64,000 nt of DNA from Thermoplasmata archaeon (GTDB lineage Archaea; Thermoplasmatota; Thermoplasmata; Lutacidiplasmatales; UBA184), in contig JASHPY010000077.1 in assembly GCA_030037855.1 (NCBI GenBank), positions 2,035-66,034 of the forward strand. Direction: 5' to 3'. The position numbers and the translations under genes were made by a program. Positions 26,328 to 33,821 of the stretch are shown here, piece by piece. The notes under the pieces were generated by a model. It saw only the letters and a list, made by a program, of their open reading frames with translations. It did no database searches and had not been told where the DNA came from. Every line of letters starts with the position of its first letter. Position 1 is the stretch's first letter.

Positions 26328-28367
26328 TCACCCGGCGCGACTCCGTGCGCGCGCACGTCGGGTCGTCGGGCCAGTGGAGGAGTGACGGTGCGTCTCCAAT
26401 CGGGGGATCGTCCCGGTCGGAAGGCCGTACTCGCGAAGCAGCGCGACGAACCGGGGCTCGTCCCGAAGGCTATCGAAGAACACGCCGCGGTACCAGAGCC
26501 AGAGCGTCGGGTCCCCCTCGCGGAAGTCCTGCTCCAGGAGGTCGAGCGCCTTCGCCTTCTCGCCCATCGCGGCGTACATCATCGCCCGGTCCGTCGGCGA
26601 CGTGTAGGTCTTGGCCTCGCCCCTCGCGATCCGGGCGAGCATCTCGCGCGCCGCCGCGGGTCGACCGAGCAGCGCGTTCAGCAGCGCGTGGTCGAACCGA
26701 GCCCCGTCGTCGGCGTCGCCGAGGGGCGTGTCCGCCTCCCGCAGGGCGTCCGTTCGCCGACCGGCGCCGAGGTAGTACATCCCGACGTACACGTGGTACT
26801 CGACCTCCTTCGGATGGCGGTCGCGCTCCGCCTCCGCGAACCGGATCCCCTCGGCGAGATTTCCCGACTCGAACTCCGCCCACGCGAGCGTGGCCTGAAA
26901 GTGTCCTCGCGGGTCGAGCTGGGCGCCGTGGCGGAGAAGTTCCTTCGCCTGGTCGAACCGGCCGAGCGCGAACGTCATCAGGCCGTAGAACCGGTACGCC
27001 TCGACGTTGCTCGGGTTCAGCGCGATCGCCTTCTGGAACTCGCTCTCCGCGAGCGCCCAGTTGTGTTCGCTCTGGAACACGAGGTTCGCGAGCGCGGAGT
27101 GCGCCGACGAGGACTCGGGGTCGATCTCGAGCGCCCGCGCGATGAGCTTCCGTGCCTTCGGGACGACCTTGCGCATCGAGATGCTGTCCCCACCGGCCGC
27201 GATGTAGGCATTGGCGCAGGCCGCGTACGCCTCCGCGAACTCCGGGTCGAGACGGGTCGCCCGCTCGAAGCAGCGGACCGCCCGATCGAGTCCGTTCGGC
27301 AGCGACTCTCTCAGCATCGCGAGTCCGCGGAGATACAGGTCGTACGCCGCGAGGTTCGACGTCGGGGGACGTTTCGGCTGCGTTCCGTCCGTCGGTCGGA
27401 GCTCGAGGCGCAGGGCGTCCGCGGTGCGCTCGGCGATGTCGCTCTGCACCGCGAACACGTCGTCCAGCTCTCGATTGTAGCTCGTGGCCCAGACGTGCTG
27501 CTGGGTCGGTACGTCGACCAGCTGAAGGGTGATCCGGATCCGGTTCCCCGCCTTTCGCACGCTGCCCTCCAGCACGGTATCGACGCCGAGCTCCGCGCCG
27601 ACCTCGGCGACCGACTTCGGGGCGGTCTTGTACGGCATGACCGAGGTCCGCGCGATGACGCTCAATCCCCGGACGTGCGAGAGCACGCTGATCAGCTCCT
27701 CGGTGAGCCCATCGGCGAAGTAGCCGTCGCCCGGGTCGGGCGAGATATTGGCGAGGGGCAGGACGGCGAGCTGCCGGGCGCCGGACGGCTCGGACGGCGG
27801 TAGCACCGACGCCACGGAACTCCACGGGAGGACCACGCGGTAGATGGTCACGGGCATTCGGATGTGCTTCAACGCGACCGGCGGGAGCCGGGCGAGAGGC
27901 ATCGGGATCTTGTTCTGGACCTGGTCGACGACCTGCTGGCTGAGACAGATCCCGCCCGGCTCGGCGAGCGGTTGGATCCGCGAAGCGATGTTGACGGCAT
28001 CGCCGAGTACGTCGTCCCGGGTTTGCACGACGTCGCCCACGTGAACTCCGACGCGCACCCGGATCCGCTCGGCCTCCGGCACGGAGGTGCCGCCCTCGCG
28101 GAGCGAACGCTGGACTTCGATCGCGCAGCGGACCGCGTCGAGCGCGCTCTCGAACTCCACCAGGAACGCGTCGCCCATGGTCTTGACGACTCGACCGGCG
28201 AACCGCGAGAAGATCGGGCGGAGGAGACGGTTGTGCTGCTCGAGCGCGTGGAGGGCCGAACCCTCGTCGGCCTGGACGCGGGCGGCGTAGCCGACCACGT
28301 CCGTGAACATGATGGCGGCGAGGCGGCGGTGCGAAGTGCTCACGGGGCGGGGACGCGCCTCCGACAA
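26328..28367 (-). CDS. class III adenylate/guanylate cyclase domain protein with TolB-N-like middle region and C-terminal TPR repeats
   Basis: CHD core: LAAIMFTDVVGYA, VKTMGDAFLVEF, RVGVHVGDVV. A bacterial-type linker follows (LAVLPLANIS...GLTEELI), then several TPR units. Confidence 0.8.
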   Translation of the reverse strand: MSEARPRPVSTSHRRLAAIMFTDVVGYAARVQADEGSALHALEQHNRLLRPIFSRFAGRVVKTMGDAFLVEFESALDAVRCAIEVQRSLREGGTSVPEAERIRVRVGVHVGDVVQTRDDVLGDAVNIASRIQPLAEPGGICLSQQVVDQVQNKIPMPLARLPPVALKHIRMPVTIYRVVLPWSSVASVLPPSEPSGARQLAVLPLANISPDPGDGYFADGLTEELISVLSHVRGLSVIARTSVMPYKTAPKSVAEVGAELGVDTVLEGSVRKAGNRIRITLQLVDVPTQQHVWATSYNRELDDVFAVQSDIAERTADALRLELRPTDGTQPKRPPTSNLAAYDLYLRGLAMLRESLPNGLDRAVRCFERATRLDPEFAEAYAACANAYIAAGGDSISMRKVVPKARKLIARALEIDPESSSAHSALANLVFQSEHNWALAESEFQKAIALNPSNVEAYRFYGLMTFALGRFDQAKELLRHGAQLDPRGHFQATLAWAEFESGNLAEGIRFAEAERDRHPKEVEYHVYVGMYYLGAGRRTDALREADTPLGDADDGARFDHALLNALLGRPAAAREMLARIARGEAKTYTSPTDRAMMYAAMGEKAKALDLLEQDFREGDPTLWLWYRGVFFDSLRDEPRFVALLREYGLPTGTIPRLETHRHSSTGPTTRRARARSRAG

Positions 28368-29497: not shown

Positions 29498-30115
29498 TCA
29501 GGTCAGCGTGACGGGGACCGAACCGGAGTATCGACCGGCGCCGAGCACGTCGAGCGTGTTCCCCTCGCCGAACGGGGAGCTCGTCGTCTCACCGAACTGG
29601 ATCCAGATCGTGTCGGTCGTATCGACCGGCGTCGTCGCGGAGTCCCCGGTGCCGTAGGTCTCCCAGCTCGTGACGACGAACGGGCTCGACTTCGCGACCT
29701 CGGTGGAGGCGATGACGGTGCCTTTTTCGTTGACGATCGCGACCATCGCGTAGTTCTTCGAGACGTCCCACACGGCGCCGGTCGACGTGACGACCTTGAA
29801 ATTCAGACTCGCGATCGTGAGGCCGGTGCTGGCCGAATCGATCGGCACCGAGTAGCAGTAGTGGTTCGCTTCGCAATACGAGGACGTCTTGCTCGTGCCC
29901 ACGAACTTCCCCGCCGGACCCGCGTAGAACTCCGCGCCGAGCGGTACCGAGGTCGTCGAGCTCCCGTGGATCACCCCCGCGATGAGGATGTACAGCACGG
30001 CCACGAGCACGACCGCGATCGCGACGAGGAGGATCGTCGCGAGCACGTCCGAAACCGCCCGATGCTGACGCCGAAGTCGCCGGCGGAGCTGCTCGGATCG
30101 CAGGATCGACTGCAT
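29498..30115 (-). CDS. archaeal type IV pilin-like protein with class III signal peptide
   Basis: N-terminus MQSILRSEQLRRRLRRQHRAVSDVLATILLVAIAVVLVAVLY matches the R/K-rich leader plus hydrophobic ATILLVAI core. Start at Met77 of ORF 29498..30343. Confidence 0.65.
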   Translation of the reverse strand: MQSILRSEQLRRRLRRQHRAVSDVLATILLVAIAVVLVAVLYILIAGVIHGSSTTSVPLGAEFYAGPAGKFVGTSKTSSYCEANHYCYSVPIDSASTGLTIASLNFKVVTSTGAVWDVSKNYAMVAIVNEKGTVIASTEVAKSSPFVVTSWETYGTGDSATTPVDTTDTIWIQFGETTSSPFGEGNTLDVLGAGRYSGSVPVTLT

Positions 30116-30187
30116 GGCCCGCTGAGCCCGGGGATCCCGTCGCCCGACGACCGGGCGGCGTGGGGACGTGGCTGTCTGCGAGCCCAT

Positions 30188-30200
30188 CGTATAAAAATCA
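30188..30200 (-). promoter_or_regulatory. TTTTTATA element (minus strand): candidate pilin TATA box and oligo-T terminator for the upstream SRPBCC gene
   Basis: A 5-T run about 35 nt downstream of the SRPBCC stop and about 75 nt upstream of the pilin ATG. Confidence 0.35.
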
Positions 30201-30234
30201 CGCGGCTCGGCGGCCGGCGCGCGGACGCGGTGCG

Positions 30235-30765
30235 CTATCGACGGCGCGTCCCGTTCGGCGGGCTCCGACGGGGCCCACCCTGCGCCCGCTCCCGAAGGCT
30301 CCGCCGGTAGTCGGCCTCCAGGGCCCGACCGAACCGTTGCCACAGCTCTCGGAGGTTCTGCTGTACGGCGGCCGGGCTCGGAGGGTCGGTCTCGAGCGGG
30401 GTCGAGGTTCGGAGCCCCCGAAATCGGAATCGGGTCGTGCCGTCGAGGCCCGGGCGCAATCGGTAGTCGATGCTCCAGGTACGGTAGTTACCGACCGATT
30501 CGGCGTGCCAGTAGCGGGGCGGATGGAGCGTCACCGTCTGTCGGTTGAGGAACCATCCGCCCGCATGATCGCCGAGGTCTTGATAGACGACCGTCCGGCG
30601 CCCGCGGCTCAGGATCCGGCGCGTGTAGGTCTCGCGCTCGATCCGCGGGTCGCCCGGGGAGTAGTCGGTGCACCACCGAAAGACGAACGGGACCGGAGCG
30701 CGGAACGTCGTCTCGATCTCGTGCCACCGACCGGTGTTCGACGGAGGGCCGTCCGGGCTCGCCAC
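30235..30765 (-). CDS. SRPBCC (START/Bet v1-like) family protein
   Basis: About 140-aa ligand-binding fold pattern (FRAPVPFVFRWCTDY...WSIDYRL) with an R-rich tail. Confidence 0.5.
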   Translation of the reverse strand: MASPDGPPSNTGRWHEIETTFRAPVPFVFRWCTDYSPGDPRIERETYTRRILSRGRRTVVYQDLGDHAGGWFLNRQTVTLHPPRYWHAESVGNYRTWSIDYRLRPGLDGTTRFRFRGLRTSTPLETDPPSPAAVQQNLRELWQRFGRALEADYRRSLRERAQGGPRRSPPNGTRRR

Positions 30766-30837
30766 GCCCCCGCGACCCGGTGGGCCCCCATTATCTTGAC
30801 CCCGACCCGCCGCCCGACGAGGGGGGTCGAGTGTGAA

Positions 30838-30857
30838 ATCTATTATATATATTTAGG
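30838..30857. promoter_or_regulatory. strong TATA island (ATCTATTATATATATTTAGG), likely bidirectional
   Basis: The most AT-rich 20-mer in this part of the window. It lies 20-35 nt upstream of the GTG start at 30876. Confidence 0.5.
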
Positions 30858-30875
30858 ACACATAGTTCCGGTCGC

Positions 30876-31442
30876 GTGAAGCTGGAGGCGAGCCTCATCC
30901 GCGAGCCCGGGGAGCGCCCGTTCCCGCGGGAGATGCGAGTTTGCGTACCGCGGAGTCGGGGGCGTCCCCGAGAAGAGTATCGACCTCGGGTCCGTACGGA
31001 GCGGGACGTCGAGCGGCTCCGGCGACACCGAGTCCCTGCGCTGCTCCTCACGTCGGAGTGGGTGACGCGGAGCGGCTACCCCGTCCGATTCCGCCCGTGG
31101 CTCGCGGTCCCGGAGGAACTTGCTTCCAAGATCACGTCCGACTACCGGCTCCTCCCGGTGAAGGACGGGGAGGCCCTCCGAGCCCCGGGCGTCGCCGAGC
31201 TCGTGACCCTGCTGCTGCGGTTCGACCCGCTCGCGGCGCGCCTCGTCGCGGTGCGGAACCGGCGGCGGCTCGACCCGAACGAACTGTATCGGCGCGTCCG
31301 CAACGAGGGGCTCGAGCGCGCGGCCACGCGAGTCCGGCTGCAGGAGTTCGCCGCGGCGCTGCCGAAGGTCGGCACGGCCCTCGATCGCGAGGAGCTCCGG
31401 TGGATCGAACGGAACAACCCCCCGCTCGAGGAGGCCGCATGA
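30876..31442 (+). CDS. hypothetical protein (188 aa), first gene of a two-gene cassette
   Basis: GTG start just downstream of the TATA island. Its 3' end overlaps the next gene as ATGA, with GAGGAGG in front of that gene. Confidence 0.45.
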   Translation: MKLEASLIREPGERPFPREMRVCVPRSRGRPREEYRPRVRTERDVERLRRHRVPALLLTSEWVTRSGYPVRFRPWLAVPEELASKITSDYRLLPVKDGEALRAPGVAELVTLLLRFDPLAARLVAVRNRRRLDPNELYRRVRNEGLERAATRVRLQEFAAALPKVGTALDREELRWIERNNPPLEEAA

Positions 31443-32017
31443 CCGAACCCGAGGTCGCGGCGGCCGACGCGGTCTTCCGACGCCAGGGGATCCGATACGT
31501 CGTGATCGGGGGCCAGGCGATCGCGCAGAAGGCGGCGACCGCGACGCGCGACGTCGACGTCATGGTCGCCACCGCGGACTACCAGCGGACGCTCGAACGG
31601 TTGCGCGGGGAGAAGGGGCTCGCGTTCGACTGGGAGGACGGGAAGCTAGCTCGGTTTCGGATCCTCGGCCAGGGCGGCGTTCCGCTCGACATCATCGACG
31701 CGGTGACGTTCTCGGGGCGGCGGAGCGGAGAGGAGTTCTTCCGCTACCTGCTCGAGGACTCGTCGGAGGAGTCGGACGGGATCCGGTATGCCTCGCCCGA
31801 GCTCGTCTGGTACACCCGACTCCTCACGAAGCGCTGGCGGGCGTACGCGGAGAAGATCGTCACGAACGTGATCGATGGACTCTCGCCCGGACGGCTCGGC
31901 AAGGTCGATGAGATCGCCCGGCGGTTCGGGACCGACAAGATGCTCGCCGAACGGATCGCGTACGTGCGCGCCGAACTCGAGCGGCCGGACCTCGAGCGCC
32001 TGCGGTCCACGGAGTAG
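31439..32017 (+). CDS. Pol-beta-superfamily nucleotidyltransferase-fold protein (AbiEii-like?)
   Basis: IGGQAIAQKAATATRDVDVMVA fits the NTase hG[GS]...DhDhhh signature. Start at Met inside ORF 30941..32017. Confidence 0.5.
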   Translation: MTEPEVAAADAVFRRQGIRYVVIGGQAIAQKAATATRDVDVMVATADYQRTLERLRGEKGLAFDWEDGKLARFRILGQGGVPLDIIDAVTFSGRRSGEEFFRYLLEDSSEESDGIRYASPELVWYTRLLTKRWRAYAEKIVTNVIDGLSPGRLGKVDEIARRFGTDKMLAERIAYVRAELERPDLERLRSTE

Positions 32018-32109: not shown

Positions 32110-33273
32110 GTGACCGGGTTCACTCGCTTCGCGAGGTCGTACCTCGACCTCTGGCTGCTCGTCGGCGGCGCGGCCGCGGCCGTCGCCGCGCTGCTCCTGT
32201 TGGCGCTCGCCCCGGGCGTCGGCGGGTACCTCCCGATCGGCCTCCTTCTCGACGGCGGGGTGGCGATCGGCGGGTCGATCGCGATCCAGTTCCGGCGACG
32301 GGAGCCCTCGCCGCGCGACCCGTCCCCGGACTCGTGGGAGGCGCTCTCCTTCCCAGCGTCTAAGCCGCCCGGGCCGGGGCTTCGCGACGCCGAGTCCTGG
32401 GCCCCGGTTCCCCGCAGCGGCATCGCCCGGGCCGCGGTATCGGTCCATCCCGGCCGCGCCACCCTCGGTACCTGGTGGAGGCGGGGTGCGAGCGAGTCGC
32501 TCGACCTTTCGAGCGGAGGATCGGTCCCTGCGAACGCCCCGGCCGCGTCGCGCTCCGGAGGGTTCTTCTCCTTCCACTCGTCGGCCCACCCCGCCGCGGG
32601 ACGAGCGCGCGGACCGACCGCGGGATATTCCGCCTCGGCGACCGGCAAAGCCGGTGCGCGGCCGATGTCGTCTCCGTTCACCCCCGCGGAACTGGACCGA
32701 CTCTTCCCCGTCGAGCGAGACGTTTCGATCGAGACCCTCGTCGCCGGCCGGGCCGCACCTCCGAGCGAACCGCTTCGGGCCGTCGGGGGACCCGGGCCGC
32801 CGCCGGTCTCGCTCGCCGCCCCCGCCGGGACCGCCGAGGCTCCCGCATCCCCCGAGCCGTTCCCGGGAACGTCTCGCACCCCGACGACCGATTCGGCGGG
32901 GCGGCCGATACGCCACCTCCTCCCGGACCGCTTCGACCGCTCCGGGGCGGAGCGCAGCAGCGTCCCGCCCGTATCGACCTCGAGCCCCCGACTCCTCCGG
33001 GAGGTGGCGAATCCCGTCCCGCCGCACCTCCGGGGAGCGGCCGCGCGCGATCACCGTCCGGTCCCGAGCGCCGTCCCCCGGCGGACCGCGCCCGCCGACG
33101 GTTCGTTGAGCTGTGGATCGTGCACGCGCCCGCTCTCCGACTTCCGTGCCTGGGCCCCGTGCGTCCAGTGCGGCCAGCCGATCTGCCGCCGTTGCCTCAG
33201 CCAATCGTTCGGGGTCGGTGAACAGGGCCTCTGCTGGGACTGCTCCGACCCCGTGCCGAGCCGGGCGTCCTGA
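32110..33273 (+). CDS. membrane-anchored protein with Pro-rich linker and C-terminal multi-CxxC zinc-finger
   Basis: Two N-terminal TM helices, about 250 aa of P/A/S-rich low complexity, then CGSC...CVQC...CRRC...CWDC. Confidence 0.4.
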   Translation: MTGFTRFARSYLDLWLLVGGAAAAVAALLLLALAPGVGGYLPIGLLLDGGVAIGGSIAIQFRRREPSPRDPSPDSWEALSFPASKPPGPGLRDAESWAPVPRSGIARAAVSVHPGRATLGTWWRRGASESLDLSSGGSVPANAPAASRSGGFFSFHSSAHPAAGRARGPTAGYSASATGKAGARPMSSPFTPAELDRLFPVERDVSIETLVAGRAAPPSEPLRAVGGPGPPPVSLAAPAGTAEAPASPEPFPGTSRTPTTDSAGRPIRHLLPDRFDRSGAERSSVPPVSTSSPRLLREVANPVPPHLRGAAARDHRPVPSAVPRRTAPADGSLSCGSCTRPLSDFRAWAPCVQCGQPICRRCLSQSFGVGEQGLCWDCSDPVPSRAS

Positions 33274-33310: not shown

Positions 33311-33346
33311 ATTTATATTACAAGATACATCACGATATATCGTGAT
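33311..33346 (+). promoter_or_regulatory. TATA box (ATTTATATTA) plus perfect 18-bp palindrome ATCACGATATATCGTGAT overlapping the padR start codon
   Basis: The palindrome spans 33329..33346 and the TATA box sits about 25 nt upstream of the ATG at 33345. Confidence 0.55.
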
Positions 33347-33821
33347 GTCCTCGACGGAAGACCGCCCGATCTCCCTTCGGCCCGCCCTCCGTCGGGGCGC
33401 CGCGCCCCTCCTGGTGCTCCGCGTCCTCTCCCAGGGCCCGCGTCACGGGTACGGCATATCCCAGGGGATCTCCGAGCTGTTCCTCGGGAACTACGAGCCG
33501 AGCCCGGGCATGGTCTATCCGACCCTGCAGTCGCTCGAGGATCAGGGGTTCGTCCGCGGGGAGCGATCCGCCGGTCGGGTCGTGTACACGATCACCGACG
33601 CGGGACGCGCGCACCTCGCCCGCGCTCGCCCCGAAGTCGAGCGGCTGCTGTCCGGGGCGGCCGAAGCGGACCCGGCCCGACCGATCGCGCGGTCGGCCGA
33701 GCGCCTTCGTCGCACGATCCTCCTGTTCTTGCCCGAGATGACCGCGGATCAGCGGCGGCGCGTCGCGGCCTGGCTCGACGACGTGCGCGCTCGCGTCGCT
33801 CGAATGGTGGAGGGGTCGTGA
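33342..33821 (+). CDS. PadR family transcriptional regulator
   Basis: PadR wHTH: LLVLRVLSQGPRHGYGISQGISEL...SPGMVYPTLQSLEDQGFV. Confidence 0.85.
   Translation: MMSSTEDRPISLRPALRRGAAPLLVLRVLSQGPRHGYGISQGISELFLGNYEPSPGMVYPTLQSLEDQGFVRGERSAGRVVYTITDAGRAHLARARPEVERLLSGAAEADPARPIARSAERLRRTILLFLPEMTADQRRRVAAWLDDVRARVARMVEGS

Follow-up and report, generated by a model that had tools for sequence, protein, structure and literature searches.

A conserved gene pair of Thermoplasmatota joins a minimal Pol-beta-type nucleotidyltransferase to a basic partner protein and may be a MenAT/AbiE-like module

We analysed a 64-kb stretch of DNA from a Thermoplasmata archaeon (contig JASHPY010000077.1 of assembly GCA_030037855.1; 70.9% GC), here called the window, with a focus on two overlapping open reading frames (ORFs). 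ORF1 encodes a strongly basic protein, and ORF2, directly downstream, encodes a protein with the signature of Pol-beta-type nucleotidyltransferases. We consider it evenly balanced whether this pair is an archaeal, Thermoplasmatota-restricted module of the MenAT/AbiE kind with a new family of partner proteins. Pointing in this direction are the fold and signature of ORF2, the strict pairing and overlap of the two genes, an operon-specific promoter, the complementary charges of the two proteins, and purifying selection. By the sequence models of Pfam, NCBIfam and PADLOC, neither protein is assigned to a family (no match above threshold), as the original prediction, made from the sequence alone, had anticipated when it could name no family for either; the enzyme class itself is already known.

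Organization and pairing of the two genes

The coding part of the cassette comprises the following features of the window:

30876-31442, forward strand: ORF1, 188 amino acids (aa), GTG start and TGA stop
31428-31434, forward strand: Shine-Dalgarno-like GAGGAGG, 4 nt 5' of the ORF2 start
31439-31442, forward strand: ATGA overlap of the ORF1 stop and the ORF2 start
31439-32017, forward strand: ORF2, 192 aa, ATG start, containing VIGGQ...TRDVDVMV

These features, together with the TATA island upstream, lie exactly where the original prediction had placed them, and ORF2 carries the signature described there, YVVIGGQAIAQKAATATRDVDVMV. The GTG start of ORF1 is supported by its homologues, whose reading frames open at the same residue, in most cases with ATG, and the bigger ORFs on alternative frames and strands at the locus are typical high-GC artefacts. 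No meaningful repeats or inverted repeats were found inside the cassette, and neither tRNA genes nor Rfam families were detected in the window.

ORF1 lies directly upstream of ORF2 with fixed spacing at 47 of 47 loci identified by tblastn. The same order, with a 4-nt overlap, recurs in all four divergent contexts (L048-L051; locus GC 39.5-67.5%), where homologues were detected by hmmsearch at E values of 1e-22 to 1e-32. The two genes are therefore adjacent at all 51 loci examined. The original prediction had described a TATA-driven cassette of two genes and had named failure of the pair to co-occur in other genomes as evidence against it; the co-occurrence at 51 loci bears out the former. The junction itself is also conserved, with an NTGA overlap in 42 of 43 distinct junctions, including those at loci with only ~30% protein identity, and with GGAG or GAGG within the 16 nt before the ORF2 start in 31 of the 43, against a background of 20%. 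This anatomy of overlap and Shine-Dalgarno-like site suggests that translation of ORF2 is coupled to that of ORF1.

Purifying selection acts on both genes, and the features of the cassette are not due to chance. Alignment columns are on average 79% identical for ORF1 (43 homologues) and 73% identical for ORF2, and dN/dS against the 14 closest relatives ranges from 0.11 to 0.25 for ORF1 and from 0.21 to 0.46 for ORF2. Pairwise identities of the two proteins correlate with r = 0.44 overall, and at three loci (L034, L035, and L041) ORF1 is ~78% identical to the window protein while ORF2 is only 56-59% identical. This discordant divergence suggests either faster evolution of ORF2 or ORF2 exchange in one sublineage. 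At two other loci, tblastn matches were broken, that of ORF1 into two pieces at ~5436-5998 of L011 and that of ORF2 at ~6001-6565 of L045; both look like frameshifts, caused by sequencing errors or marking pseudogenes.

The nucleotidyltransferase ORF2

The AlphaFold2 (AF2) model of ORF2 (predicted local distance difference test, pLDDT, 91.7) has a Pol-beta nucleotidyltransferase fold. In Foldseek searches of the PDB, the top match by TM-score was MenT1 in the MenAT1 complex (8an5_A; E 1.6e-4, prob 1.00, query TM-score (TMq) 0.62 over 201 columns), at ~16% sequence identity. Other matches were JHP933 (4ok0; E 1.4e-4, TMq ~0.4), LnuA (4fo1; E 2e-3) and ANT(2'')-Ia (5kqj; E 2.8e-3), the latter two with TMq of 0.44-0.47, as well as viral poly(A) polymerases and, at rank 48, MenT3/TglT (6j7o). 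The assignment of ORF2 as a Pol-beta-type nucleotidyltransferase is thus upheld, with MenT1 as the closest solved structure.

Conservation was assessed in 43 homologues of the close clade and four divergent ones. Residues G24, G25, T36, D38, D40, D64, R127, K139, and a few hydrophobic positions are invariant across both sets, and the catalytic signature G24, G25, T36, D38, D40, K139 is kept down to ~30% identity. The corresponding codons in the window are as follows:

31508-31513, forward strand: G24-G25, hGG motif I, invariant in close and divergent homologues
31544-31558, forward strand: T36-R37-D38-V39-D40, with D38 and D40 as the metal-binding DxD
31688-31690, forward strand: D84, probable third acidic residue of the triad, invariant in the close clade and E in divergent members
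31853-31855, forward strand: K139, the sole Lys invariant across the wide family

The T36-x-D38 arrangement, invariant in all 43 close and four divergent homologues, places a threonine two residues before the first aspartate, the same position as T39 of MenT1, S78 of MenT3, and T65 of AbiEii. The active site of MenT1 reads T39-R40-D41, and T39, like S78 of MenT3 and T65 of AbiEii, is auto-phosphorylated when the antitoxin binds (PMC10435456; PMC11375011; bioRxiv 10.64898/2026.01.19.700257). From the alignments, K139 is a candidate equivalent of MenT1 K137. An alternative correspondence by identical spacing, with K131 and D146 of ORF2 standing for K137 and D152 of MenT1, was dropped; K131 and D146 are conserved in the close clade only, and divergent homologues have neither.

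Sequence models place ORF2 less precisely. Across Pfam, PADLOC, and NCBIfam there was no AbiEii match (PF08843 or other models) at E <= 1; PADLOC returned nothing, and NCBIfam only two marginal purH matches far under threshold. The sub-threshold Pfam matches all belong to the nucleotidyltransferase clan (NTP_transf_5 at E 2e-3, DUF6036, Aminoglyc_resit, and DUF2204). DUF6036 was matched by 38 of 43 ORF2 homologues, always below threshold (best E 3.8e-4) and over ~40 N-terminal residues; the window protein scored 13.8 bits against a gathering threshold of 23.6 bits. Given the invariant signature and the MenT1 fold match, we place ORF2 at fold and superfamily level only: on its predicted structure and active-site signature it is a minimal DUF1814-superfamily-like nucleotidyltransferase, and by sequence models it is not PF08843. 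The DUF1814 superfamily, as listed previously, includes MenT, JHP933, and ANT(2'')-Ia (bioRxiv 10.64898/2026.01.19.700257).

A search with the ORF2 profile against PDB sequences gave one marginal match (E 0.004), to the C-terminal region of the archaeal O-phosphoseryl-tRNA synthetase (SepRS) 2du3. It covers ORF2 residues 90-174 (window 31706-31960), with TKRWRAYAEK..IDG aligned to TKKWRSFFEE..IDG, and is probably due to chance, though worth mention given that tRNA is a suspected substrate of ORF2. Neither the single ORF2 sequence nor the ORF1 profile had a meaningful match among PDB sequences.

Given these structural neighbours, we also considered that ORF2 could be a nucleotidylyltransferase of small molecules, like ANT(2'')-Ia, LnuA, or a cofactor or metabolite transferase, with ORF1 in an accessory or regulatory role. 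Its size and fold resemble those of LnuA and ANT(2'')-Ia, 11 of 43 ORF2 members have sub-threshold Aminoglyc_resit matches, and proteins of the glyoxalase/bleomycin-resistance family are the most frequent neighbours of the pair (11 of 150 flank genes). However, MenT1 is the better structural match (TMq of 0.62 vs. 0.44-0.47), and the glyoxalase genes form small clusters and are not consistently adjacent to the pair. Furthermore, we know of no resistance nucleotidyltransferase that needs an obligatory, translationally coupled basic partner. Taken together, this explanation seems improbable.

The basic partner ORF1

ORF1 is strongly basic (median isoelectric point (pI) 10.9, net charge +11), and ORF2 is acidic (pI 5.7). 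Neither ORF1 nor 52 diverse relatives matched a Pfam family, and ORF1 had no match in NCBIfam or PADLOC; as judged by these searches, it represents an undescribed protein family. Its AF2 model (pLDDT 86) is confident for residues 37-180, which form a beta-alpha-beta-alpha-beta-alpha-beta unit followed by a helical bundle, while residues 1-36 are of low confidence and non-helical; a three-helix winged helix-turn-helix (wHTH) is absent from the model.

Despite the low confidence, the N-terminal arm (residues 1-40) is conserved, with L7, R9, E13, G29, R30, P31, and R36 invariant in the clade. Within it lies the sequence RGRPR(K/E)EYRPR, which contains the following feature of the window:

30957-30968, forward strand: R28-G29-R30-P31 codons, AT-hook-like RGRP core in the basic N-terminal arm

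G29, R30, and P31 are the invariant residues of this core in the close clade. In the wide ORF1 family, 38 of 42 full-length members have [GH]-R-P, so the glycine is not universal. We treat a role of RGRP as an AT-hook or DNA-binding arm as a lead suggested by these motifs.

Foldseek matches of ORF1 to the PDB were weak (TMq 0.31-0.38), the best being Rv2827c/MenA4 (E 0.04, prob 0.84). The top four fold matches all come from systems of the MenAT/AbiE type, including Rv2827c/MenA4, a MenT1 chain, and AbiEi (6y8q), which suggests a weak link of the ORF1 model to AbiEi at fold level. Against the viral library BFVD, Foldseek returned noise only (prob <= 0.08) and thus no viral relatives. Two candidate identities were rejected. 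ORF1 is not a degenerate paralogue of ORF2 (hhalign prob 0.1%), and it is not a canonical AbiEi, given no Pfam, PADLOC or NCBIfam match, an hhalign prob of 0.12% against a genuine AbiEi encoded at locus L018, and no wHTH.

A small protein next to a minimal nucleotidyltransferase is also the generic architecture of MNT-HEPN modules, in which the nucleotidyltransferase is an antitoxin that AMPylates a HEPN RNase toxin, and the hG[GS]x9-13DxD spacing of ORF2 is compatible with such minimal enzymes. However, ORF1 alignments hold no conserved Rx4-6H (the wide family does not keep H51), ORF1 matched no HEPN family in Pfam and no HEPN structure in the fold search, and the ORF2 fold matches are of the DUF1814 type rather than the MNT type. 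An MNT-HEPN module is therefore effectively excluded. The original prediction had named AbiE-type and MNT/HEPN-type modules as candidates; the second fails, and the first holds in part, as ORF2 is nearest to MenT1 of the AbiE-like MenAT systems but ORF1 is not a canonical AbiEi.

An operon-specific promoter element

Upstream of ORF1 lies an archaeal promoter with a B recognition element (BRE), which occupies the following positions of the window:

30833-30859, forward strand: promoter element (BRE, extended TATA and cTTa), with the core gcAAtaTAaTATAtATAcTTa at ~30835-30855
30841-30855, forward strand: A/T tract TATTATATATATTTA, 21-35 nt upstream of the GTG at 30876

The original prediction had singled out this TATA island as the strongest of the window, and indeed, at 15 nt, TATTATATATATTTA exceeds every other pure A/T run in the 64 kb; the second longest has 11 nt, and just five runs reach 7 nt or more. 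Its 3' end is 20 nt before the GTG at 30876. The promoter is near consensus and looks strong. Counted from the ORF1 start codon, the TATA octamer lies at about -32 to -25, preceded by the A-rich BRE at about -39 to -33. Given these positions and the standard geometry of archaeal promoters, the ORF1-ORF2 mRNA should be leaderless or near-leaderless.

A 19-bp element, gcAAtaTAaTATAtATAcTTa, could be aligned upstream of ORF1 at all 44 distinct loci; six of its positions do not vary, and 13-18 nt separate its end from the ORF1 start codon. The pattern TANTATWWATAYTT matched 46 times in 625 kb (the window and the loci together), 44 of these matches being at ORF1 promoters, and the element is kept at loci with ~30% protein identity, even in an AT-rich genome, over a range of locus GC of 39-73%. 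Given that the pattern is nearly exclusive to ORF1 promoters and survives deep divergence, the element is a cis element tied to the ORF1-ORF2 operon and not a generic promoter consensus of these genomes. The remaining two matches belong to L040 (215-228) and L041 (3670-3683), where a second copy stands in tandem 126-144 nt upstream, with no ORF between the copies; this copy could give rise to an upstream transcript or to a small RNA, or be a duplicated operator.

Distribution and inheritance

At cluster level, we found 209 homologues of ORF2 and 237 of ORF1. The best 120 of each are 62-99% identical to the window proteins and mostly exactly 192 aa and 188 aa long, respectively; among these, every named source is a Thermoplasmata metagenome-assembled genome (MAG), and the NCBI locus tags of both genes are adjacent. 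A scan of GTDB species representatives yielded 40 loci in 39 MAGs, all Thermoplasmata except one labelled "bacterium," and 38 of the 39 MAGs have a single copy of the pair. The remaining one, JOPF287, has two divergent copies (L035 and L043; 70% identity between the ORF1 proteins and 62% between the ORF2 proteins), which are true paralogues unless the bin is mixed. When 1.84 billion representatives were searched exhaustively with the ORF1 profile in HMMER, only 73 clusters (50% identity) were retrieved, with the divergent members (25-45% identity) stemming from Thermoplasmata/Thermoplasmatota, including Ca. Natronoplasma. At every locus, the GC content of the pair equals that of its flanks (range 59-73%). 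Given the restriction to Thermoplasmatota, the mostly single copy per MAG, and the match in GC to the flanks, the pair looks vertically inherited and long resident in this lineage rather than like recent mobile defence cargo.

Genomic neighbourhood

We surveyed 150 flank genes at 40 loci, called with a crude GC3-based caller. The most frequent Pfam families were glyoxalases, S-adenosylmethionine-dependent methyltransferases (7), and cyclase-TPR proteins (5-6), and the flank genes were mostly metabolic. Specific PADLOC matches were limited to one AbiEi, one type II methyltransferase, and one Csa3/CARF protein, with ten further "mad2" matches left unassigned. The original prediction had seen the neighbourhood as accessory; an accessory or defence neighbourhood is not supported by this survey and the GC of the pair.

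Clustering of the 150 flank proteins in search of a third conserved gene gave only the cyclase-TPR group (six proteins at five loci) and small glyoxalase groups. No third gene accompanied the pair consistently, and the pair appears as a self-contained unit. The cyclase-TPR group consists of an adenylate/guanylate-cyclase-plus-TPR protein of ~650-680 aa, encoded a few genes from the pair in the window (26328-28367, reverse strand) and at L007, L008, L018, L026, and L035; PADLOC reported it as PycC-like, and its adjacency and orientation to the pair are inconsistent.

Flanks are shared with the window only by close relatives. L008, L009, L012, and L021 have the same alpha/beta hydrolase, 176-aa protein, Zn-finger membrane protein, and DUF885 protein, at identities similar to those of the pair itself, and most other loci have no flank genes in common with the window. 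Mobile and toxin-antitoxin (TA) genes do occur at some loci, with IS110, Fic, HicAB, integrase, and PIN genes at L001, and a DDE transposase and Csa3 at L050. At L018 of a related MAG, a canonical AbiEi (275 aa, PADLOC E 8e-50; 2108-2935) stands beside an apparently truncated AbiEii (GGTYL...RLSEDLDF), together at 1821-2935 on the reverse strand and ~2.5 kb upstream of the ORF1-ORF2 pair. Given this co-occurrence in one genome, classical AbiE and the ORF1-ORF2 pair are distinct.

In the window, the neighbours of the pair are the cyclase-TPR protein, an alpha/beta hydrolase, a protein with a weak Pilin_N match, a PadR-family regulator, DUF998, and DUF885. Further features of this region are:

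30235-30765, reverse strand: 176-aa protein, immediate neighbour, no Pfam match, conserved only in the closest relatives
32110-33273, forward strand: 387-aa membrane protein with C-terminal CxxC pairs, immediate neighbour, no Pfam match, conserved only in the closest relatives
~33313-33320: TATA-like tract TTATATTA, upstream of the PadR-family gene
33328-33347: perfect 20-bp palindrome CATCACGATATATCGTGATG, overlapping the GTG/ATG start of the PadR-family gene at 33342-33821

The palindrome CATCACGATATATCGTGATG is a probable operator through which PadR would regulate its own gene, on a leaderless transcript. With its upstream extension, the pilin ORF (29498-30343) overlaps the 176-aa ORF, and the Pilin_N match starts only at residue 95; therefore, the true start of the pilin is probably internal.

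The lineage restriction and the metabolic surroundings bear on a further explanation, namely that the pair encodes an obligate two-subunit housekeeping enzyme without any TA relationship, in which ORF2 is catalytic and the basic ORF1 is the nucleic-acid-binding or specificity subunit for a lineage-specific RNA or DNA modification. We regard this main alternative as somewhat unlikely. The high conservation and constant lengths of 188 and 192 aa, with ORF1 more constrained than ORF2, would suit such an enzyme, as would occurrence in Thermoplasmatota only, across loci of 39-73% GC, with GC equal to the flanks and mostly one copy per MAG. The mostly metabolic neighbours without defence context, the complementary charges, with a basic protein that is a likely nucleic-acid binder next to an acidic ORF2, and the near-consensus, strong-looking promoter also fit. 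However, the nearest structures, those of toxins and resistance enzymes, belong to proteins that each work as one catalytic chain, and the invariant threonine in the MenT phospho-acceptor position suits regulated toxins. Moreover, flanks that are not conserved would be unusual for a core gene, some loci lie beside insertion sequence elements, Fic, HicAB, an integrase, or canonical AbiEi, and one MAG holds two divergent copies.

Comparison with known systems

Of the characterized systems, MenAT1 of Mycobacterium tuberculosis (Rv0078B-Rv0078A, type VII) shares most with the pair on the enzyme side: ORF2 has 192 aa compared with 184-195 residues in the MenT1 PDB chains, both enzymes have T-R-D at the active site with the threonine in the phospho-acceptor position, and in both bicistronic operons the partner gene is immediately upstream. 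The partners, in contrast, are of unrelated families; MenA1 has 68 aa and no DNA-binding domain (PMC10435456), while ORF1 has 188 aa and is very basic. The ORF1-ORF2 pair also differs in its archaeal host, its TATA/BRE promoter with a probably leaderless mRNA, and its lineage-restricted, apparently vertical inheritance.

With AbiEi-AbiEii (COG5340-DUF1814), an abortive-infection or type IV-to-VII TA system, the pair shares the gene order of partner first and nucleotidyltransferase second, a positively charged partner, and an enzyme with Pol-beta motifs and a Ser/Thr two residues before the catalytic Asp. Unlike AbiEi, ORF1 lacks a wHTH and an AbiEi match in Pfam or PADLOC, and ORF2 is ~100 residues shorter than a typical AbiEii. 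AbiEi autoregulates via its promoter (bioRxiv 10.64898/2026.01.19.700257); in the ORF1-ORF2 pair, the conserved cis element is the BRE/TATA itself and not upstream inverted repeats, and the 40 surveyed loci provide no defence-island context. DUF1814 modules have been expected in archaea, with COG5340 or COG4861 partners (PMC11375011).

The uncharacterized minimal nucleotidyltransferases DUF6036, NTP_transf_5, and DUF2204 (clan NTP_transf) resemble ORF2 in the N-terminal hGG...T-x-D-x-D and in size, but their matches are sub-threshold and confined to the N-terminus; for DUF6036, our literature search found no paper. JHP933 of Helicobacter pylori, ANT(2'')-Ia, and LnuA are among the top Foldseek matches of ORF2, yet at TM-scores of 0.40-0.47, and they are stand-alone enzymes acting on small molecules or unknown substrates, with no obligatory coupled partner.

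Discussion

Several observations weigh against a MenAT/AbiE-like module. ORF2 stays under threshold for PF08843/AbiEii, PADLOC, and NCBIfam models, MenT1 D152 lacks a counterpart at a conserved position in ORF2 (D146 in the close clade, D at 143 in divergent members), and ORF2 is acidic overall, whereas MenT toxins depend on a positively charged catalytic core (PMC11375011). For its part, ORF1 lacks the AbiEi wHTH, shows no sequence kinship to a canonical Thermoplasmata AbiEi, reaches fold TM-scores of only 0.31-0.38, and is more conserved than ORF2. The family is also lineage-restricted, usually single-copy, and equal in GC to its flanks, all atypical of TA or defence cargo; the patchy horizontal spread and the defence or mobile location typical of such cargo are not seen for the pair, with mobile and TA genes nearby in some loci only.

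If the pair is nonetheless a MenAT/AbiE-like module, its operation might be pictured as follows. ORF1 would be made first from the leaderless mRNA, and translation of ORF2 would follow by coupling through the NTGA overlap and the Shine-Dalgarno-like site. The basic ORF1 would then bind the acidic ORF2 and hold it inactive, either by occluding the active site or by pushing T36 towards a bound nucleoside triphosphate so that ORF2 auto-phosphorylates, in analogy to the type VII control exerted by MenA1, MenA3, and AbiEi. By analogy with MenT and AbiEii, ORF2 would add nucleotides to RNA 3' ends, most likely the tRNA CCA end, and thereby throttle translation. More speculatively, ORF1 could feed back on its own operon via the A/T-rich BRE/TATA element, possibly through the [GH]RP arm.

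Given no sign of recent transfer and the strong conservation, we propose that the pair may serve as a domesticated switch of growth or translation and not as a mobile element for addiction or defence. The most specific form of this proposal is a type VII-like Thermoplasmatota switch, in which ORF1 both regulates a MenT-like RNA or tRNA enzyme, possibly by auto-phosphorylation of T36, and represses its own operon through minor-groove binding of the TATA/BRE by the [GH]RP arm in competition with the TATA-binding protein. In this complete form it is a long shot. If true, a MenAT-type system would be known from archaea for the first time, and its autoregulation would make use of the archaeal promoter.

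MenT/AbiEii nucleotidyltransferases rank among the most abundant bacterial toxin and phage-defence enzymes, and their control by antitoxin-induced auto-phosphorylation has been described recently and, according to the MenT and AbiEii papers cited above, in bacteria only. Should the pair instead encode a housekeeping two-subunit enzyme, it would represent a lineage-specific RNA-modifying activity in Thermoplasmatota. As a MenAT/AbiE-like module, the family described here, in which the catalytic and phospho-acceptor signature is kept in an archaeal enzyme that is paired with an unrelated and highly conserved basic partner and with a TATA element specific to the operon, would reveal how archaea regulate such enzymes and add a new family of antitoxin-like proteins. 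Moreover, autoregulation at the level of the promoter could be studied on it in a tractable form, at the TATA box of an archaeon.

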